IMG/VR virus record: IMGVR_UViG_3300030390_000715
Location: 32,001 to 96,000 of that record
Direction: 5' to 3' (one strand)
Origin: a virus
DNA length: 64,000 nt
Shown here in pieces: positions 3,100 through 33,286 of this stretch. The notes under the pieces are model-generated. The model worked only from the letters and a program-made list of their open reading frames with translations. It was not told the DNA's origin and did not search any database. The position numbers and the translations under genes are program-made. How positions within the stretch are numbered: position 1 is the first letter of the stretch; the number at the start of each line of letters is the position of its first letter.

Positions 3100-3915
3100 T
3101 TGAGAAAGCAGAATATAGTAGTAGCGGGATGGGGTGCGGTGGGTCAATGCGTAGGCGAAGCCTTGCGACCGGTCGCGAACATTCTCATTGACGATCCATA
3201 TCATGACAATCCAGATTATAGATCGACTCAACCCTCTGACTTGAATGATCTTGATGCGGTAATCATATGTGTAGCCACGCCGGCGAACGTGCATAATAAT
3301 AGTTGTGATACCAGTTTTGTAGAAGAAGTTATCGAAAAGTATGGAACAAAGCCAAGGTATCTACTCAAGTCGACCATCACCCCCGATTTCTTTGCAAAAC
3401 CTTATATGCTAGATGGTGTTGAATGTAAGATTACATATAGTCCAGAATATATTCGCGGCACGACAGGTAATGATTACGTCACTGATTTTAAAAACGCGAC
3501 CTTTGCAATATACGGTGGTGGTGAGATGCGTTGGTGGGACGAGTTGTTTCGTTTAGTCCAACCCAACATTAAAGATGTTCGGTACATGACTGCGGTACAG
3601 GCTTCTTTTACTAAGTATTTTCTTAATTGCTATTTAGCCGCTAAGACCACATTCTTTAACCACATGAAAGACATAGTTGATCATATGCCCTCTATGGGCG
3701 ATCCTGACTATGACATTATTATCGATGGTCTATGTTTAGATCCTAGAGTCAGTAAGTCACATACTCAAGTACCAGGACCAGACGGTAAGAAAGGATTTGG
3801 GGGACATTGTTTCCCAAAAGATGTATCAGCGATGTCATGGATGTCGACTGATCTGGGTGTAGAGAATAACTTCCTCGACACCGTATTAAACTTTAATGAT
3901 ACTTATAGAAAATAA
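3100..3915 (+). CDS. UDP-glucose/GDP-mannose dehydrogenase family protein
   Basis: GWGAVG Rossmann motif, ICVATP, KST, SPE, GFGGHCFPKD catalytic Cys motif. Confidence 0.85.
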   Translation: MRKQNIVVAGWGAVGQCVGEALRPVANILIDDPYHDNPDYRSTQPSDLNDLDAVIICVATPANVHNNSCDTSFVEEVIEKYGTKPRYLLKSTITPDFFAKPYMLDGVECKITYSPEYIRGTTGNDYVTDFKNATFAIYGGGEMRWWDELFRLVQPNIKDVRYMTAVQASFTKYFLNCYLAAKTTFFNHMKDIVDHMPSMGDPDYDIIIDGLCLDPRVSKSHTQVPGPDGKKGFGGHCFPKDVSAMSWMSTDLGVENNFLDTVLNFNDTYRK

Positions 3916-4203: not shown

Positions 4204-4423
4204 TGCACCCTTTGCGGCTTCATTATATAATGACGAATCTGATAATGAATCAGCTACGCGATGGCATTTAAAAATGCTCATTGAGGATCTTGATGATATG
4301 GGCATTTACATTAATGCAAACGGAGAACAATACGACGAGGATACTCCTCAATTTAAAGAGATGGCGTATATACTTCGAAGGACTCTAGAATATGTTAGTA
4401 AAACAGGAGAGGTACATATCTAA
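4196..4423 (+). CDS. Hypothetical protein
   Basis: ORF overlapping both neighbours. Confidence 0.5.
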   Translation: MNDAPFAASLYNDESDNESATRWHLKMLIEDLDDMGIYINANGEQYDEDTPQFKEMAYILRRTLEYVSKTGEVHI

Positions 4424-4818
4424 TGATAGGAATTATTCGTAATGCGATGAAAACACCTGACGGAACGATTCTGGAGTCCAGACATCGACATGATTTTAAA
4501 TCACATAAAGACGCGAATGGCAAAGAATATATCATCGACGGTGGACAATCATATCTTCGAAGATCCGCGTGGGACGACCAAGTAGATTTGTCTGTATCGC
4601 TTATGGATGGTCATGATAGAGTTCGAAATGCATTAGAATGGGGAACATATGGTGTTACCGGAGACATGCCTCTGACGTATCTTACCCTTAAAGATATGGA
4701 TACTGATCACATTGAAACTATTCTAGAACTTCAAAATCCAGTGGCTTCGTTTAAAGAAGCGTTTAAAAACGAGCTATCATACAGAAAGGAAACGGGTCAA
4801 TGGCAAACAGCGATTTAG
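4423..4818 (+). CDS. Conserved hypothetical phage protein
   Basis: ESRHRHDF...DGGQSYLRR motif common in large phages. Confidence 0.6.
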   Translation: MIGIIRNAMKTPDGTILESRHRHDFKSHKDANGKEYIIDGGQSYLRRSAWDDQVDLSVSLMDGHDRVRNALEWGTYGVTGDMPLTYLTLKDMDTDHIETILELQNPVASFKEAFKNELSYRKETGQWQTAI

Positions 4819-6340: not shown

Positions 6341-6965
6341 CATATCTTATTAACTCGACAGGAAATAGTTATGACTGATTATACGCTAAAGAGTTGGAAT
6401 GATTTGACTTCATTAAAGAAGCGAATCACCGAAGACAAAACAAGCGAGAGTGTAGTTGAATTTACTGGATACTCTCTGATAACTAACCACTTCGTCTATA
6501 CACTATATGATGGAATATTAACAAGGGTGAAAAAATGAATCTATACGAAGCAATGACTTTAGGATTTTTTATGGCTGTTGGAGTCTGTTGCGCTGTCGGC
6601 ATGGCGATGGCGTTCATCGCCTCTGGAAGGGTGCATCAACGAGAGTGGAACTTAGCTGTTCCAATGTTTGGTTTATGTTCTTCTGTGGGCGTAGTTACGT
6701 TTATGTTATCCTATGGAGCATGATAATGTCAGAACGCTATAGACAGGAAACTACAGATTGGGGCACGTTAAAAATTCTCAATCACATATATATCACTGAG
6801 GGTGAGCAACTAGTCGGTTATATACCTCTCGGTGGTAAAGAGATCCGTTACAAGAAATCAAAGAAGCAATGGTCTTCTGCCAAGCGAAAGTTCCGTGATC
6901 TGACCAAGAATGAGATTGCTTACATAAAAGAAAATGGTAGCTTTATCGAAGGAGGTAAAGTATGA
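6308..6965 (+). other. Three small hypothetical genes (one a membrane protein)
   Basis: Tightly coupled ORFs ending at 6538, 6723 and 6965. Confidence 0.5.
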
Positions 6966-7357
6966 TTGCTAAGTTTCTCGTAGGAATGATAGTGACACTA
7001 TGTTTGGGTCAGTGGCTACACTACACCTTTCAGTATAAGCCTTTACAAGAGGATTACGCTGAAGCTAAAAATCTTATAAGCGCACAGGCTGTTCGAGAAG
7101 CTGAACAGGTTATAACTATCAGTAAGCTCGAAGACAACCTAGCGAAAACTAGTGAAGCGTTACAAGTGCAGACTCGACGCAATTCTGAAATAGAAGCCGA
7201 GAAAGATTTATACCTCGATATTTTTCGTCGACATAAACTATCTCAACTAGCCGCGGCTAAACCTGGTCGCATTGAACCCTTATTTAACAAAGGTACTAAA
7301 GATGTATTCGATTCAATTGAAGCGAGTAGTTCTATTATTGACGCTCTTAACGATTAG
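6962..7357 (+). CDS. Inner-membrane spanin (Rz-like)
   Basis: N-terminal TM helix, coiled coil, AKPGRIE motif; overlaps a lipoprotein gene. Confidence 0.7.
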   Translation: MIAKFLVGMIVTLCLGQWLHYTFQYKPLQEDYAEAKNLISAQAVREAEQVITISKLEDNLAKTSEALQVQTRRNSEIEAEKDLYLDIFRRHKLSQLAAAKPGRIEPLFNKGTKDVFDSIEASSSIIDALND

Positions 7358-7694
7358 TGGCTGTAGTCTATGGGGTAAGAAAGATGCTCCTATCGTAGAG
7401 GTACGAACAATAGAAGTGAAAGTTCCTATTGTGCATCCGGTATTACCACGAGCCATTAATCTTAAAGAACCTTATTTTCACGTGGTGAGCAGGGTGAACC
7501 TCGATGAATTCATCGAAGACTTCGAGAAGCGAAATGACGTTCTAGTGTTCACCGCAATGTCAATTGGCGATTATGAGTTGATGGCATATAATATGCAAGA
7601 AATAAAAAGATATATTGACCAATTGAAAGAAGTTATAGTATACTATAGAAAAATAAATGATGATGAAGGAGTGAAGAGTGATGAAGCTAAGTAG
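7272..7694 (+). CDS. Outer-membrane spanin lipoprotein (Rz1-like)
   Basis: Lipobox LLTISGC; overlaps the i-spanin 3' end. Confidence 0.7.
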   Translation: MNPYLTKVLKMYSIQLKRVVLLLTLLTISGCSLWGKKDAPIVEVRTIEVKVPIVHPVLPRAINLKEPYFHVVSRVNLDEFIEDFEKRNDVLVFTAMSIGDYELMAYNMQEIKRYIDQLKEVIVYYRKINDDEGVKSDEAK

Positions 7695-7920
7695 CGAAAC
7701 ACTGAACGCAATAGGTTATTTCTTTAGTTATAAAGGACTTGATAGGTGGAGTGGATGGGAAAGAGAGCAAAAGGTGATACTTCAAGAACTACCTACGCTA
7801 AAAATGTATCTGGATAAAGAGAAAGAGCTAGAGGATTTAAGGTTAGCTGTTAAGGACGAATTAAAAACTTATTACGAGAAACGTAGCCTGTCGCAATATA
7901 CGAGCGACCCCGAAGTCTAG
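7678..7920 (+). CDS. Hypothetical protein
   Basis: ORF with GGAG RBS. Confidence 0.5.
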   Translation: MMKLSSETLNAIGYFFSYKGLDRWSGWEREQKVILQELPTLKMYLDKEKELEDLRLAVKDELKTYYEKRSLSQYTSDPEV

Positions 7921-7937
7921 TAACCGGGACAATTTAA

Positions 7938-8144
7938 CTCGCATGACCCCTTGAGGTAGGATCTCACTGGTAAATGCTAAGGGTGGAGTAGAACGTGAAT
8001 AGTAGTCGTGCTTGGTCGCTTGACGAACTTGAAACAGAATCGCTCTAATAGTATGAAGCGTATTCCTAACCAGTTGATCGTTAGTACAAACTTAGTAAAC
8101 CTGTCCTACAAATCAAGGCGCCTGAGAACGGCGATGCGAGGCCA
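7938..8144 (+). ncRNA. Structured ~207-nt RNA with tRNA-like ends
   Basis: CTCGCAT/ATGCGAG 7-bp stem + G + CCA; CGCC-TGAGAAC-GGCG T-arm-like hairpin; nested helices CCTTGA/TCAAGG, GTAGGA/TCCTAC, ACTGGT/ACCAGT; no ORF. Confidence 0.65.
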
Positions 8145-8182
8145 ATTAAAATAGTAAAGCAACATTAAAAGGAAGCAAGCAA

Positions 8183-8317
8183 ATGAGTAGTTCAAGCATA
8201 CGACGAGGTGCAGTCAAAACGGTTGAATGGTGGAAACACTTGCGTAGTAGAAAACGAGCGCAAAATAAACTTGTGAGACAGGACGGTAAGGCGATAACAA
8301 AAGAGGAAAGCAAATGA
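8183..8317 (+). CDS. Small basic protein (44 aa), duplicate of the next gene
   Basis: MSSSSIRRGAV...EWWKHLRS...RAQNKLVRQDGKAITKE. Confidence 0.6.
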   Translation: MSSSSIRRGAVKTVEWWKHLRSRKRAQNKLVRQDGKAITKEESK

Positions 8318-8499
8318 TAAAAATGAGTAGTTCAAGCATGCGACGAGGTGCAGTCAACCCGCCCGATCAACGTGGAGACTTACTAGAATGGTGGAAACAC
8401 TTGCGTAGTGACAAATATTTTAATCAATTGAATCAACGAGCGCAAAATAAACTTGTGAGACAGGACGGTAAGGCGATAACAAAGGAGGCAAGCAAATGA
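8314..8499 (+). CDS. Small basic protein, tandem duplicate with two insertions
   Basis: Near-identical DNA blocks to 8183-8317. Confidence 0.6.
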   Translation: MIKMSSSSMRRGAVNPPDQRGDLLEWWKHLRSDKYFNQLNQRAQNKLVRQDGKAITKEASK

Positions 8500-9305
8500 G
8501 ATACATTGCCCGGTTTAGCGCGAGTAGAAGCGCATGGTGCGTTCATTGGCTTGAGGAGAGCAATGCCTCTAGTTATATTGTGGATTTGGATTCTGTTATA
8601 ATACAAAAGTATGGGACAAAAGAGTTGGCTGAAGCTAAGTGCTTGCAGTTGAACGAGGAGAAAGACAAATTCCTAGCAAGCCCATCTTTTGAACCCCAAC
8701 TTGAACTAGACCTAGAGGAAACAAGCGAATGAACGAATACATGAGAACAAGTGTGAAGTCAAAGTCATTTTGGGAAACAGTAATGCTGATAGTTCTACTC
8801 TGCCTCGTCATAAGCGTGGTTTATTCTGTTGCAAACAAAGAACCTCCGCAAAACAAGTGTATTGACGGAACTCTTTACCGACCAACCGATCAAGGTTACT
8901 GGCTGGCATACAATCAAAAGTGCAAGTCTTTACCGATAGAGGAGATAAGCGAATGAAAATGGCAGTGTTTTGTTTTTGGTGGCTTATGTTGATTTTTGTA
9001 GATCATATTCTGGCATTAAATGTTATTAATTACGAGTCTGTTAGTAAAGATGGATTGTTATTACGGGCATTTATTTTGACCTATTGCAGTGTCAGCTACA
9101 GCGGCTTCAAAGAGGGCATACGACTATGAATACAATGAATTTAAAAGGATTTACTATAGCATTTATGGTTTGCTATATCATGCTTAGTATCATGCTAAGA
9201 TATAGCGGTGTAGTTCTAGGCGCAGAGCAGGTAGTTTTGTCTACCGCGTTTACAATATATCTACTCTTTCAGATACCTCGAAAGAGAAAAAAGAGGAATA
9301 TGTAA
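8496..9305 (+). other. Four small hypothetical genes, three with TM segments
   Basis: ATGA-coupled ORFs ending at 8732, 8956, 9129 and 9305. Confidence 0.55.
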
Positions 9306-9322
9306 TTAAAACAAATAAAGTC

Positions 9323-9351
9323 TTGACAATAGTTGACTGACCCGTTATAAT
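9323..9351 (+). promoter_or_regulatory. sigma70 promoter
   Basis: TTGACA-17-TATAAT. Confidence 0.8.
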
Positions 9352-9383
9352 AACATCTTACTTAATTGAGAAGGTATTATATT

Positions 9384-10343
9384 ATGTCACATGAATTAGA
9401 AATTGTTAACGGTAAAGCTATGATGGCTTATGCAGGAGATACTCCATGGCATGGTCTAGGTACACGAGTAAACACTGATCTAGCACCTCGTGAAATGATG
9501 GTAGAAGCCGGACTAGATTGGGGAGTCGAGAAACACCCTTGCTTCATTGATGTCAATGGCGAATCAATCGCTACAGGTCAAGAAGCACTCATTCGAACAG
9601 ACACCAACGCAGTACTTACTAATGTAGGAAAGGGTTGGAATCCTGTTCAAAACCATGAAGCGTTTGATTTTTTTGCTGAGTATTGTGCCGCTGGTGATAT
9701 GGAAATGCACACGGCTGGCTCACTTAAAGATGGTCAGATTACTTGGGTTCTTGCTAAAGTGAACGAGTCGTTTGATGTACTTGGCGACGATAAGATCGAT
9801 TCTTACTTATTACTATCTAATCCACACCAATACGGTAAAGCGATCAATGTACGATTCACCCCTATTAGGGTTGTCTGTAACAACACCTTAAGCTTTTCGC
9901 TTAGTACTAGCTCTAAGAACACTGTTAATTTGAATCACCGCAACAAGTTTAACCCTGATATGGTTAAAGATCAGATGGGAATTGCGCACGAGAAGTTTTC
10001 GCTATACAAAGATATGGCTCAACACTTAGCCCATAAGACCGCAAGCTTTGATGATTTGATTACATATTTCAATGAAGTCTTTCCTGTCGCCAACTCGCAA
10101 AAACGTGATGCCAGAGCCTACGCTGATCTTTCAAGAACTGCTAAACTTGCGTTCGATCAACTAAACACACAGCCCGGAGCAGACTATGCACGTGGTTCTT
10201 GGTGGCAAGCACTTAACGCTGTTACTTACACCACTGATCACTTACTTGGTCGAACAGCGGATGCTCGAATGACTTCAGCATGGTTCGGAGCGAATCAGTC
10301 AAAGAAAACGAACGCTGTCAACCTAGCTGTAGAGATGGCATAA
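9384..10343 (+). CDS. DUF932 (phage/plasmid TIGR03299-like) protein
   Basis: PWHGLG, PVQN, TPIRVVCNNTL motifs. Confidence 0.85.
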   Translation: MSHELEIVNGKAMMAYAGDTPWHGLGTRVNTDLAPREMMVEAGLDWGVEKHPCFIDVNGESIATGQEALIRTDTNAVLTNVGKGWNPVQNHEAFDFFAEYCAAGDMEMHTAGSLKDGQITWVLAKVNESFDVLGDDKIDSYLLLSNPHQYGKAINVRFTPIRVVCNNTLSFSLSTSSKNTVNLNHRNKFNPDMVKDQMGIAHEKFSLYKDMAQHLAHKTASFDDLITYFNEVFPVANSQKRDARAYADLSRTAKLAFDQLNTQPGADYARGSWWQALNAVTYTTDHLLGRTADARMTSAWFGANQSKKTNAVNLAVEMA

Positions 10344-17229: not shown

Positions 17230-17566
17230 ATTTAGAGCGTGGCATAGAGGTGCTGAGGAATTTTGTGAGGGCTTAACATCTAATATGTTTCAGTGGAGAG
17301 AAGATGGGCAACCCATAACACTTATGCAATACACCGGACTCAAAGATGCTAATGGTGTTGAGATGTACGAGGGTGATGTTCTTACTGCACAGAAAGGCTC
17401 TTACTCTGGGAAGTCCCTACCTATCAAGGGGGCATTAGAAGTCCACGGAATACATTGGTTTATTAACACAGGTGATATCCTAACGTATCTAGGGGGCGTC
17501 AGAAACATAAAAGTAATTGGCAACATATACGAAAACCCAGAACTAATCCGAGGAGATACAAAATGA
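17216..17566 (+). CDS. YopX family protein
   Basis: IKFRAW...MQYTGLKD..G.EMYEGD...VIGNIYENPEL. Confidence 0.9.
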   Translation: MREIKFRAWHRGAEEFCEGLTSNMFQWREDGQPITLMQYTGLKDANGVEMYEGDVLTAQKGSYSGKSLPIKGALEVHGIHWFINTGDILTYLGGVRNIKVIGNIYENPELIRGDTK

Positions 17567-17844
17567 TTGAACTAGAACAGATTGCAAAACAAGCCAAATC
17601 GTCAATAGTTGCCGCTGAAAAGCTTAGTGCATTGGACGATCTTCGTGTCGAGTACCTTGGTAAGAAAGGTAGGCTAACAGGCCTTCTTAAAGGTCTAGGC
17701 AGATTGTCGGCTGAAGAACGCCCGGCAGAGGGCGCTAAAATAAATGATGTCAAACAAAGCCTACAAGAGCTTATTGGGCAGCGAAAAGCTTATCTTGAGA
17801 GTATCGACCTGGATGCCACTTATACGCAAACCCAGAACTATTAG
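17563..17844 (+). CDS. Stand-alone N-terminal tRNA-binding arm of Phe-tRNA synthetase alpha subunit (captured fragment)
   Basis: LDDLRVEYLGKKG-LT-LLKGLG-LSAEERPA-GAKIN-VK matches the PheS N-terminal domain; no catalytic domain. Confidence 0.85.
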   Translation: MIELEQIAKQAKSSIVAAEKLSALDDLRVEYLGKKGRLTGLLKGLGRLSAEERPAEGAKINDVKQSLQELIGQRKAYLESIDLDATYTQTQNY

Positions 17845-31279: not shown

Positions 31280-33286
31280 ATGCCCGTAAAAATTGATAAA
31301 AATCGCGATGAATTATTAAAAGATTATGCTGTAGGAATGTTGCGCGATTTCTATATGACAGACAAAGAAACCTCACCACAGCAAGCCTATCGAAGAGCCG
31401 CAAGAGCATGGTCTTGTTACGAGGGTCAAATGGACGAAGCCCTAGCACAACGCTTATATGACTATGTTTCGAAAAAGTGGTTTATGTTCGCTTCCCCAGT
31501 TTTATCGAATGCGCCTGAAATGAGTAACGGTCTGTCTCCAAAGGGTATGCCTATATCATGTTTCTTGACATATGTTCCAGATACATTAGAGGGCTTGATT
31601 AGTCACACTTCTGAACTACGTTGGTTATCTGTTTATGGGGGTGGAGTTGGCGGACACTGGAGTGCTGTTCGGACTGTATCAGACGTAGCACCTGGTCCTA
31701 TGCCTTTTCTACATACAGTTGATGCAGACATGATCGCTTATAGACAAGGTAAAACGAGAAAGGGTTCATACGCGGCTTATATGGACATCTCTCACCCAGA
31801 CATTATCGAATTCTTAAATATGCGCGTACCTACAGGTGACGTACAGCGTAAAGCACTAAACCTTCATAACGCTATTAATATCACTGATGAATTCATGGAG
31901 GCGGTGCGATTCAATTACGAGTTTGCATTGCGTGATCCTAAAGACAACGGTATAAAGGAGATGATCAACGCTCGAAAGACTTGGGAACGTATTCTGGAAA
32001 TTCGCTTCAGAACAGGCGAACCCTATCTAAACTTTATTGATACTGCTAATCGCGATCTACCTCAACCACTGAAAGACTTGGGGCTGAAGATTAATGGTTC
32101 AAACCTATGTAACGAAATTCACTTACCTACTGATGCAGAAAGAACCGCTGTTTGTTGTCTCTCTTCATTAAATCTGGAGTACTATGATGAATGGAAAGAT
32201 ACCTCTATTGTTCGTGATCTTATCCGTATGCTTGATAACGTCCTGCAATACTTTATCGACAACGCTCCAGATACAATTGAAAGAGCGAAGTTTAGTGCGG
32301 GTCGGGAACGAAGCATTGGTCTGGGAGCCATGGGGTTCCACTCCCTACTGCAAAAACAGTCTGTTGCTTGGGAATCACAAACCGCAAAGGAGATTAATCA
32401 AGTTGTGTTTCAGCACATTAATTCCGAAGCGCACAAAGAGACTGAACTTCTCGCTCAAGAAAGAGGAGAATATCCAGACGGAATCGGCAGTGGAAAGCGA
32501 AACTCACACTTGTTGGCAATCGCGCCCAACGCCAGTAGTGGTGTTATCTTGTCAACGTCACCTTCGATTGAACCCCTAAAAGCATGTGCATATACGCACA
32601 GAACCCGCGCAGGTTCTTTCTTAGTTAAAAACATCTATCTTGACAGTCTCTTGACTGAGATTGGGCATAATAATGACGCGATATGGACATCTATTATCAC
32701 AAACAAAGGATCTGTTCAACATCTACCTATTCTTAACGAAGGGCAGAAAGCCATATTCAAAACTGCGCAAGAGCTTGATCAGAACTGGGTCATAGAACAT
32801 GCCGCTAACAGGCAGAAGTATATTTGCCAAGGGCAATCTGTCAACGTATTCTTTCCAGCCGGTGCTGATAAGGACTATGTCAATTCTGTACACTTGAATG
32901 CTTGGATAAAAGGATTAAAAGGATTGTACTATCTACGCACAGAAGCTAAAAATCGTGCGGAGAATGTGTCCGAGAAAGTAGAACGCGTAGCTCTTTCTGG
33001 TGATATGCGAAGCATTGTATACAGCAAGCCTGGGTGCCCGTTCTGTACGTTAGCTGAAGAAGAATTAAAACTTCGAGGTATCTCTTTTGATAAGATATGT
33101 CTAAAAGAAATAGGAAAGACTGCGGCTGAAGTCACAGGCAGAAACGTCAAGACAGTTCCACAAATATATATTGCAGGCGAGTATGTTGGTGGTTATGATG
33201 ATCTTATGGTCCACTTGACAGCCGATCTTGAAGCTGATACAATATCCATAGACGAAGATAATGAGTGCCGAGCCTGCGAAGGGTAG
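31280..33286 (+). CDS. nrdA: Class I ribonucleotide reductase alpha subunit with inserted glutaredoxin domain
   Basis: ISCF, GSNLCNE, VCCL, APNASS, LYYLR; CPFC...TVPQI..GGY Grx domain; terminal CRACEG. Confidence 0.95.
   Translation: MPVKIDKNRDELLKDYAVGMLRDFYMTDKETSPQQAYRRAARAWSCYEGQMDEALAQRLYDYVSKKWFMFASPVLSNAPEMSNGLSPKGMPISCFLTYVPDTLEGLISHTSELRWLSVYGGGVGGHWSAVRTVSDVAPGPMPFLHTVDADMIAYRQGKTRKGSYAAYMDISHPDIIEFLNMRVPTGDVQRKALNLHNAINITDEFMEAVRFNYEFALRDPKDNGIKEMINARKTWERILEIRFRTGEPYLNFIDTANRDLPQPLKDLGLKINGSNLCNEIHLPTDAERTAVCCLSSLNLEYYDEWKDTSIVRDLIRMLDNVLQYFIDNAPDTIERAKFSAGRERSIGLGAMGFHSLLQKQSVAWESQTAKEINQVVFQHINSEAHKETELLAQERGEYPDGIGSGKRNSHLLAIAPNASSGVILSTSPSIEPLKACAYTHRTRAGSFLVKNIYLDSLLTEIGHNNDAIWTSIITNKGSVQHLPILNEGQKAIFKTAQELDQNWVIEHAANRQKYICQGQSVNVFFPAGADKDYVNSVHLNAWIKGLKGLYYLRTEAKNRAENVSEKVERVALSGDMRSIVYSKPGCPFCTLAEEELKLRGISFDKICLKEIGKTAAEVTGRNVKTVPQIYIAGEYVGGYDDLMVHLTADLEADTISIDEDNECRACEG

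Follow-up and report, generated by a model that had tools for sequence, protein, structure and literature searches.

A gene for a structured RNA lies on the + strand at positions 7938-8144 of the 64,000-nt stretch of virus DNA analysed here (the window, positions 32,001 to 96,000 of the 152,753-nt IMG/VR record IMGVR_UViG_3300030390_000715), and its ends, fold and genomic niche are conserved in other phages. The 207-nt RNA runs from the first base of a terminal stem to an encoded CCA, as fixed by full-length covariance model (CM) matches with these ends in seven sequences: the window itself, two close strains from a metagenome scan (L082, which is identical to L083, and L084) and four further loci (L177, L183, L181 and L182). 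It is almost certainly a real RNA gene, encoding a stable RNA of an apparently uncatalogued family, and this family is new within a known kind, the stable RNAs with tRNA-like ends found in phage tRNA clusters. Its members are 189-210 nt long and have a covarying terminal stem, an N-CCA tail and two invariant sequence blocks, CTGGTAAATG about 30 nt from the 5' end and TATTCCTAACCAGTTGAT in apical position, all of which are found in the window RNA.

That phage tRNA clusters contain further stable RNAs has been clear since T4, and we know of no explanation of their role. The unusual RNA biology hidden in this niche is apparent from GOLLD and ROOL. The present finding adds another such family, one with clear ends, a covariation-backed fold and two invariant blocks that can be mutated. 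A natural experiment comes with it, a T4-like marine phage that carries the RNA but has no tRNA gene (ARAGORN finds none in the entire record). In this genome the RNA is therefore kept for its own sake, which argues for a function of its own rather than for a gene that rides along with tRNAs. The role of the extra RNAs in phage tRNA clusters thereby becomes testable on a small, well-delimited molecule.

Homologs in phage tRNA arrays

The first homolog, L177, was found by a gapped pattern of short motifs, and IMG/VR was then scanned with a 17-mer, the longest run identical between the L177 and window RNAs. The L177 RNA (1662-1864, - strand, on a 98.6-kb IMG/VR contig) aligns with the window RNA from end to end at 79.4% identity and lies 7 nt downstream of tRNA-Asn, and the L183 RNA (4319-4521, - strand) is 74.8% identical. 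The 17-mer scan returned six stretches, every one of them inside a phage tRNA array of 2-22 tRNA genes. Scored end to end with model R2, the four full-length homologs reach 215.4 bits (L177), 194.8 bits (L183), 49.7 bits (L181, 3368-3575; E-value 3.7e-11) and 34.4 bits (L182, 6085-6273; E-value 3.4e-7); the window scores 256.2 bits with the family model, which was built partly from the window.

In three of these four (L177, L183 and L181) a spacer of only 5-7 nt separates the RNA from a tRNA gene, and the A/T-rich spacers that flank the element in the window (...aatttaa on the 5' side, attaaaa on the 3' side) resemble those of the homologs in tRNA arrays. Each record carries one copy of the RNA. 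The carrier genomes are roughly 190-350 kb, as extrapolated from CheckV completeness, and a relative of the 325-aa protein encoded in the window was found in none of the four records searched, which are 14-83% complete.

Two further loci, L184 and L185, have only the core in common with the family (models R1 and R2), including the first 17 bases of TATTCCTAACCAGTTGAT. Here a 335-nt gap between tRNA-Pro and tRNA-Asp (L184, 4988-5322, the same in L185) holds the 17-mer together with GCTTGGTCGC, in an order that differs from that of the other members; this gap may hold a relative of the family that is larger or has been rearranged.

Searches outside these arrays were negative. With blastn the window RNA, the L184 gap and the L181 RNA found nothing relevant among cultured phages; a 19-nt match in cyanophage S-RIM44 falls within a tail-fibre gene of 12 kb and was rejected as chance. 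A host-derived copy was sought by blastn in 201 genomes and with model R1 in 101 genomes of the family of the SAR92-clade (HTCC2207) genome G006 plus five others, in neither case with a significant match. In a search for an antisense target, TATTCCTAACCAGTTGAT with at most one mismatch was found in none of 401 genomes of the class of G006 on either strand.

Covariation, strand and fold

The consensus fold comprises 56 pairs. In a plain MAFFT/RNAalifold alignment of five sequences both sides have changed in 5 of these; in a model-fitted alignment of eight distinct rows, where 94.1% of cells are paired overall, 22 of 56 have changed on both sides, against 7.9±2.0 in shuffles (0 of 500 reach 22) and 1-9 in slid controls, this larger count resting on an alignment that itself leans towards structure. 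We have therefore put weight on sequences in which the changes can be read directly. The strand is + because many one-sided changes (alignment pairs 2, 7, 16 and 208) give G·U pairs, which on the opposite strand would be A·C mismatches. A reading of this DNA made without database searches (the sequence-only reading) had proposed a non-coding RNA on the + strand, and homologs, covariation and G·U pairs all agree with it.

The terminal, acceptor-type stem is the best example, with both-side changes in six of its seven pairs. In the window CTCGCAT (7938-7944) pairs with ATGCGAG (8134-8140), followed by an unpaired G8141 and the encoded CCA (8142-8144). The corresponding strands are CTCGCAT and GTGCGGG in L177 (tail A-CCA), CTCGCAT and GTGCGAG in L183 (tail G-CC, then a T run), GCTGTAC and GTACAGC in L181 (tail A-CCA) and GTCGTGT and ACACGGC in L182 (tail G-CCA). 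The 7-bp stem with its encoded N-CCA tail, another proposal of the sequence-only reading, is thus a family feature, with L183 as the variant.

Four further helices show compensatory changes. Helix 2, in which CCTTGA (7949-7954) pairs with TCAAGG (8113-8118), has both-side changes in three of six pairs, for example C-G to A-U in L177 and L183. Helix 3 (7956-7962 with 8103-8109) has them in three of seven, pair 7959-8106 being G-C in the window, U-A in L177 and L183 and U-U in L084, and helix 5 (7975-7981 with 8091-8097) likewise in three of seven, with A-U to G-C in L177 and C-G to U-A in L183. In the hairpin at 8005-8024, formed by a GC/GC closure and a variable stem around the loop TTGGTC (8012-8017), four of six pairs have changed on both sides, and the TGGT of its loop (8013-8016) never varies in the seven full-length sequences. 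A hairpin at 8037-8065 (GAATCGC.../...GCGTATTC), whose 3' strand enters an invariant block, has nine pairs, of which two show both-side changes and three depart by unpaired cells alone. A predicted CTAAC/GTTAG hairpin was rejected as unsupported, with no covarying pair and with four of its five pairs departing only by unpaired cells.

The interior of the molecule is a rod ending in a multiloop that holds the two invariant blocks, the 10-nt CTGGTAAATG (7967-7976) and the 18-mer TATTCCTAACCAGTTGAT (8061-8078), each identical in all seven full-length sequences. The GGT inside CTGGTAAATG (7969-7971) pairs with 8099-8101 in the consensus fold. On the strength of its conservation TATTCCTAACCAGTTGAT is likely the working site of the RNA. 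This picture differs from the sequence-only reading, whose stem sequences all lie where it had placed them, including GTAGGA (7956-7961) with TCCTAC (8104-8109) and ACTGGT (7966-7971) with ACCAGT (8069-8074). The helix drawn from the last two has a pair probability of 0.00, its first pair is broken in every relative and its other five pairs are invariant; instead of one long nested helix the interior is an interrupted rod with a multiloop. L182 departs further: it folds as a plain rod, and its CTGG is paired to the 3' side of that rod.

Next to the terminal stem the window has a hairpin of 4 bp with a 7-nt loop, CGCC-TGAGAAC-GGCG (8119-8133), which the sequence-only reading had likened to a T-arm. 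A tRNA T-arm has a 5-bp T-stem closed by G53-C61 and a T-loop of consensus T-T-C-R-A, and the window hairpin differs from this tRNA top half in its 4 bp, its C-G closure and its loop TGAGAAC. As a family feature the T-arm does not survive: the hairpin lacks a T-Psi-C-type loop and is kept in L177 and L183 (where a C-G has changed to U-G, the L177 loop being TTGAAAG), different in L181 and absent from L182. The likeness to tRNA that holds for the whole family consists of the terminal stem, the N-CCA and the position among tRNA genes, with no tRNA top half.

Comparison with known RNAs

Rfam 15 gives no match at gathering score in the 64-kb window, and at lax thresholds only chance hits (bxd_4, bxd_5); no homolog was matched at E<=0.01. 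ARAGORN (default settings, introns allowed, or a low threshold) calls no tRNA in the window RNA, a poor antisense 'tRNA-Asp' call being rejected as chance, and the tRNA model RF00005 matches neither it nor the homologs, while finding 50 tRNA rows around the latter. The view of the sequence-only reading that the RNA is neither a tRNA nor a tmRNA therefore stands. The literature searched holds no description of it, and the family may be among the 8,495 unnamed candidate RNAs of a large IMG/VR screen (PMC10690425).

Closest in kind, and not of the same family, are the T4 stable RNAs species 1 (rnaC, 139 nt) and species 2 (rnaD, 119 nt), which likewise lie beside tRNA genes (AF158101); rnaC even has a tRNA-type hairpin near its 3' end. 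They differ from the present RNA in length, the annotated T4 RNAs have no encoded 3' CCA, and the invariant blocks were not seen in them by eye. Model R2 finds no match on the T4 locus that holds both.

GOLLD and ROOL, described in PMC12286853 as residents of phage and prophage tRNA islands, have the same niche. They are much larger, their models miss the present RNA, and nothing suggests that it forms cages. GOLLD (RF02032) occurs in the very same tRNA arrays, at L181 4235-4691 (159.2 bits, above the gathering score) and at L184 11012-11371 (127.9 bits, cut by the end of the locus); a tRNA-Lys call at 4299-4370 falls within the GOLLD of L181.

RNase P processes several non-tRNA RNAs that end in a stem with a 3' RCCA, among them pre-4.5S RNA, tmRNA, phage M3 RNA and C4 RNA (PMC11143913). 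The present RNA resembles pre-4.5S RNA, M3 RNA and the P1/P7 C4 antisense RNA in its stem and RCCA-type tail, L182 being a rod of this type. A stem of at least 7 bp with a 3' N-CCA, as required of such substrates, is found in the window, L177, L181 and L182, and L183 has GCC and a T run. The model of the small bacterial signal recognition particle (4.5S) RNA matched no member of the family.

Proposed function and its alternatives

The reading we favour, with moderate confidence, is that of a stable folded RNA of about 207 nt which is processed by tRNA enzymes and acts in trans via its invariant blocks. The RNA would be transcribed with its neighbours, here from an early-type promoter at 7615-7644 and elsewhere within tRNA operons. 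Host tRNA-maturation enzymes would then free it, RNase P cutting at the base of the terminal stem and 3' trimming proceeding back to the CCA. The freed RNA would act in trans via CTGGTAAATG and TATTCCTAACCAGTTGAT on a partner that may be the same in very different hosts and would most likely be part of the translation or tRNA machinery. That tRNA-processing enzymes make the ends seems reasonably probable to us; tRNA-like processing, already suggested by the sequence-only reading, has become plausible with three of four full-length homologs so close to tRNA genes, and the 5' cut would be that of RNase P. Any particular target is a doubtful proposition at best, and the roles put forward by the sequence-only reading (a decoy for anticodon nucleases, a translation factor or a defence sensor) are guesses. 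It is unlikely, if attractive, that the family is a previously undescribed class of phage riboregulator, CCA-tailed by the host, whose absolutely conserved 18-nt site binds and reprograms a universally conserved translation or tRNA component. If true, phages would have in it a small RNA whose function parallels that of tmRNA or 6S RNA, and one that matters enough to stay the sole 'tRNA-cluster' gene in a phage without tRNAs.

A number of observations, together with the lean of the model-fitted alignment, weigh against the favoured reading. The minimum free energy (MFE) of the element, -56.9 kcal/mol, is unremarkable (z = -1.17 on the + strand, -0.59 on the - strand); G+C (0.469) and MFE both place the stretch among the top 4% of genome windows, but once corrected for G+C its MFE is only at the 19th percentile. 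Equally good long-range arm duplexes are found at 266 loci of the genome against 253-273 in shuffled genomes. The genome has two copies of the motif of a 7-bp stem, an abutting 4-bp/7-nt hairpin and NCCA, where 100 shuffled genomes have 0.5 on average and 39 of them have at least one; the second copy (genome 29702-30008, - strand, outside the window) is antisense to two + strand open reading frames (ORFs) and is therefore spurious, the motif alone arising by chance. Folded by itself or with some 90 nt of flanking sequence, the RNA has pair probabilities of 0.88-1.00 in the terminal stem, in the next two helices and in the hairpin, but inside the whole ORF80-ORF61 transcript the long-range helices fall to 0.00.

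The relatives contribute to this side as well. In the close strains none of the 29 pairs proposed by the sequence-only reading is compensated and three are broken, and L084 has two mismatches in helix 3. Folding z-scores are unremarkable in L177 (-0.56) and L181 (-1.27), only L182 standing out (-5.35). The RNAs of L181 and L182 share just 43-50% identity with that of the window. Only four independent full-length lineages are known, and these were reached via a conserved word and so carry an ascertainment bias. As regards a target, a 16-nt wobble complement was found in three host-type genomes, which is control level only, and a 12-nt D-loop complement in just 1 of 55 array tRNAs. As regards processing, the abutting hairpin lacks the T-loop letters and is missing in L182, which would leave RNase P only the stem and NCCA to recognise. 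Taken by itself, this genome makes a weak case for an RNA; the element stands above chance because homologs elsewhere show covariation. Contigs of four metatranscriptome runs, in which the element is not enriched, cannot show RNA ends and argue neither way (those of run X5 cover 7433-7946 and 8017-8700, those of X12 the flanks only).

The element could instead be a cis-acting cutting or insulating mark, at which RNase P cuts the early message between ORF80 and the genes for small basic proteins and releases an RNA without a job. We give this a small chance. It suits an element placed between two ORFs with the promoter at 7615-7644 upstream and no terminator, and there is a precedent in the plant mitochondrial t-elements, which are presented in PMC1920247 as tRNA-like folds between coding regions where tRNA-processing enzymes make RNA ends. 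However, t-elements are short cis signals, whereas this RNA, at about 200 nt, far exceeds what a cut would need and lies mostly between tRNA genes, where there is no mRNA to cut. Nor would a cutting mark explain why blocks of 10 nt and 18 nt are invariant among members that are otherwise so divergent.

A decoy or sponge for a defence system or toxin that attacks tRNA ends (acceptor stem or CCA), protecting translation, has slim prospects in our view. The terminal stem and N-CCA are indeed the only tRNA features kept throughout the family, and the RNA is retained by a phage in which tRNA genes are absent, by loss or from the start. Against this, no defence or counter-defence gene is linked to it at any locus. 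The terminal stem is, moreover, free to change in sequence, and the invariant parts lie in the interior, which suggests that the working site is there too.

We consider it very improbable that the RNA enters the ribosome as a miniature tmRNA or in some other aminoacylated form. The topology is that of the tRNA-like domain of tmRNA: a long helix emerges from a 7-bp terminal stem with N-CCA, and three of the lineages also have a hairpin stacked beside the 3' strand. Short frames ending in double stops follow a GCT at 7976 in the window and L084. Yet this RNA of only about 200 nt has neither a conserved tag frame nor the T-loop consensus, and L182 has no T-arm at all. The putative tag frames are wholly different between members and do not have a hydrophobic end, neither ARAGORN nor the Rfam tmRNA models detect it even with lax thresholds, and no member has the alanine identity pair G3·U70, pair 3-70 being C-G in the window (as the sequence-only reading had pointed out), U-A in L181 and C-G in L182.

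A decayed gene cassette with chance stems and no functional RNA, which the statistics of this genome alone would permit and which might suit a fast-turnover neighbourhood and strains with +2 and +1 indels and helix-breaking changes, is scarcely credible given full-length homologs in unrelated large phages, compensatory changes in five helices, invariant blocks, and the failure to find either a conserved frame or any paralog (tblastx and blastn against the genome and all loci return only self and strain matches).

Locus, neighbouring genes and close strains

The window phage has marine myoviruses, such as the Melnitz phages, as distant relatives. Its RNA lies in a 262-nt gap without a credible gene, between ORF80 (7678-7920) and two small basic ORFs (8183-8317 and 8314-8499). 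The claim that the region has no ORF holds in the sense that no credible gene is present, but not literally: the sole frame inside the gap is a 48-aa GTG ORF (8008-8154), which is broken by a +1 insertion in L084 and is therefore not a gene. This gap is the only G+C-rich ORF-free stretch (0.47) of the genome; the others (0.30-0.37) are A+T-rich promoter or terminator spacers. A consensus scan finds no promoter or terminator belonging to the gap and no terminator-like site across 7000-9500. The nearest promoter upstream of the RNA, by consensus scan alone, is a sigma-70-like TTGACC-18-TATACT on the + strand at 7615-7644, from which the RNA would belong to the ORF80 transcript.

The neighbourhood is a fast-turnover block of small cassettes. 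Upstream lie Rz-like spanin genes (6962-7694), and an ATP-dependent DNA ligase is also encoded. In RNA runs X19 and X20, relatives agree with the window in the spanin gene as far as 7666, beyond which another gene follows; the block from ORF80 on can therefore be swapped as a cassette region. Three protein relatives of ORF80 are known; neither it nor ORF61 has a relative in IMG/VR, and none of the 80 IMG/VR loci with the 325-aa neighbour carries the small ORFs or the RNA. The small basic proteins, of 44 and 61 aa, are encoded by tandem paralogs (8183-8499), neither with a PHROG match and the 61-aa one without a relative in IMG/VR. L082 and L084 have a single copy of this gene against two in the window, and an RNA-run contig joins 8434 back to 8253, so that its copy number varies in nature.

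In the close strains the RNA differs from that of the window by one substitution (L082) or by five substitutions and indels of +2 and +1 (L084), a divergence not below that of the flanks (3-7%). Directly upstream of the RNA, L084 has an insertion of about 180 nt (3233-3420, near window position 7909), bordered by a directly repeated segment of about 40 nt from the 3' end of ORF80. The insertion contains a 9-codon ORF behind a good ribosome-binding site and about 120 nt without a frame, and looks like a fresh cassette insertion by duplication. The identical L082 and L083 are separated by 154,366 nt on a single metagenome contig of 308,986 nt, which therefore holds a phage genome of about 154 kb twice over, head to tail, and could be a concatemer or a circularly permuted assembly. 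Elsewhere in the window a PheS-arm fragment (17563-17841) has its best match, at 85%, in a metagenome-assembled genome (MAG) of the SAR92 clade (HTCC2207), followed by Porticoccaceae MAGs at 66-75%.

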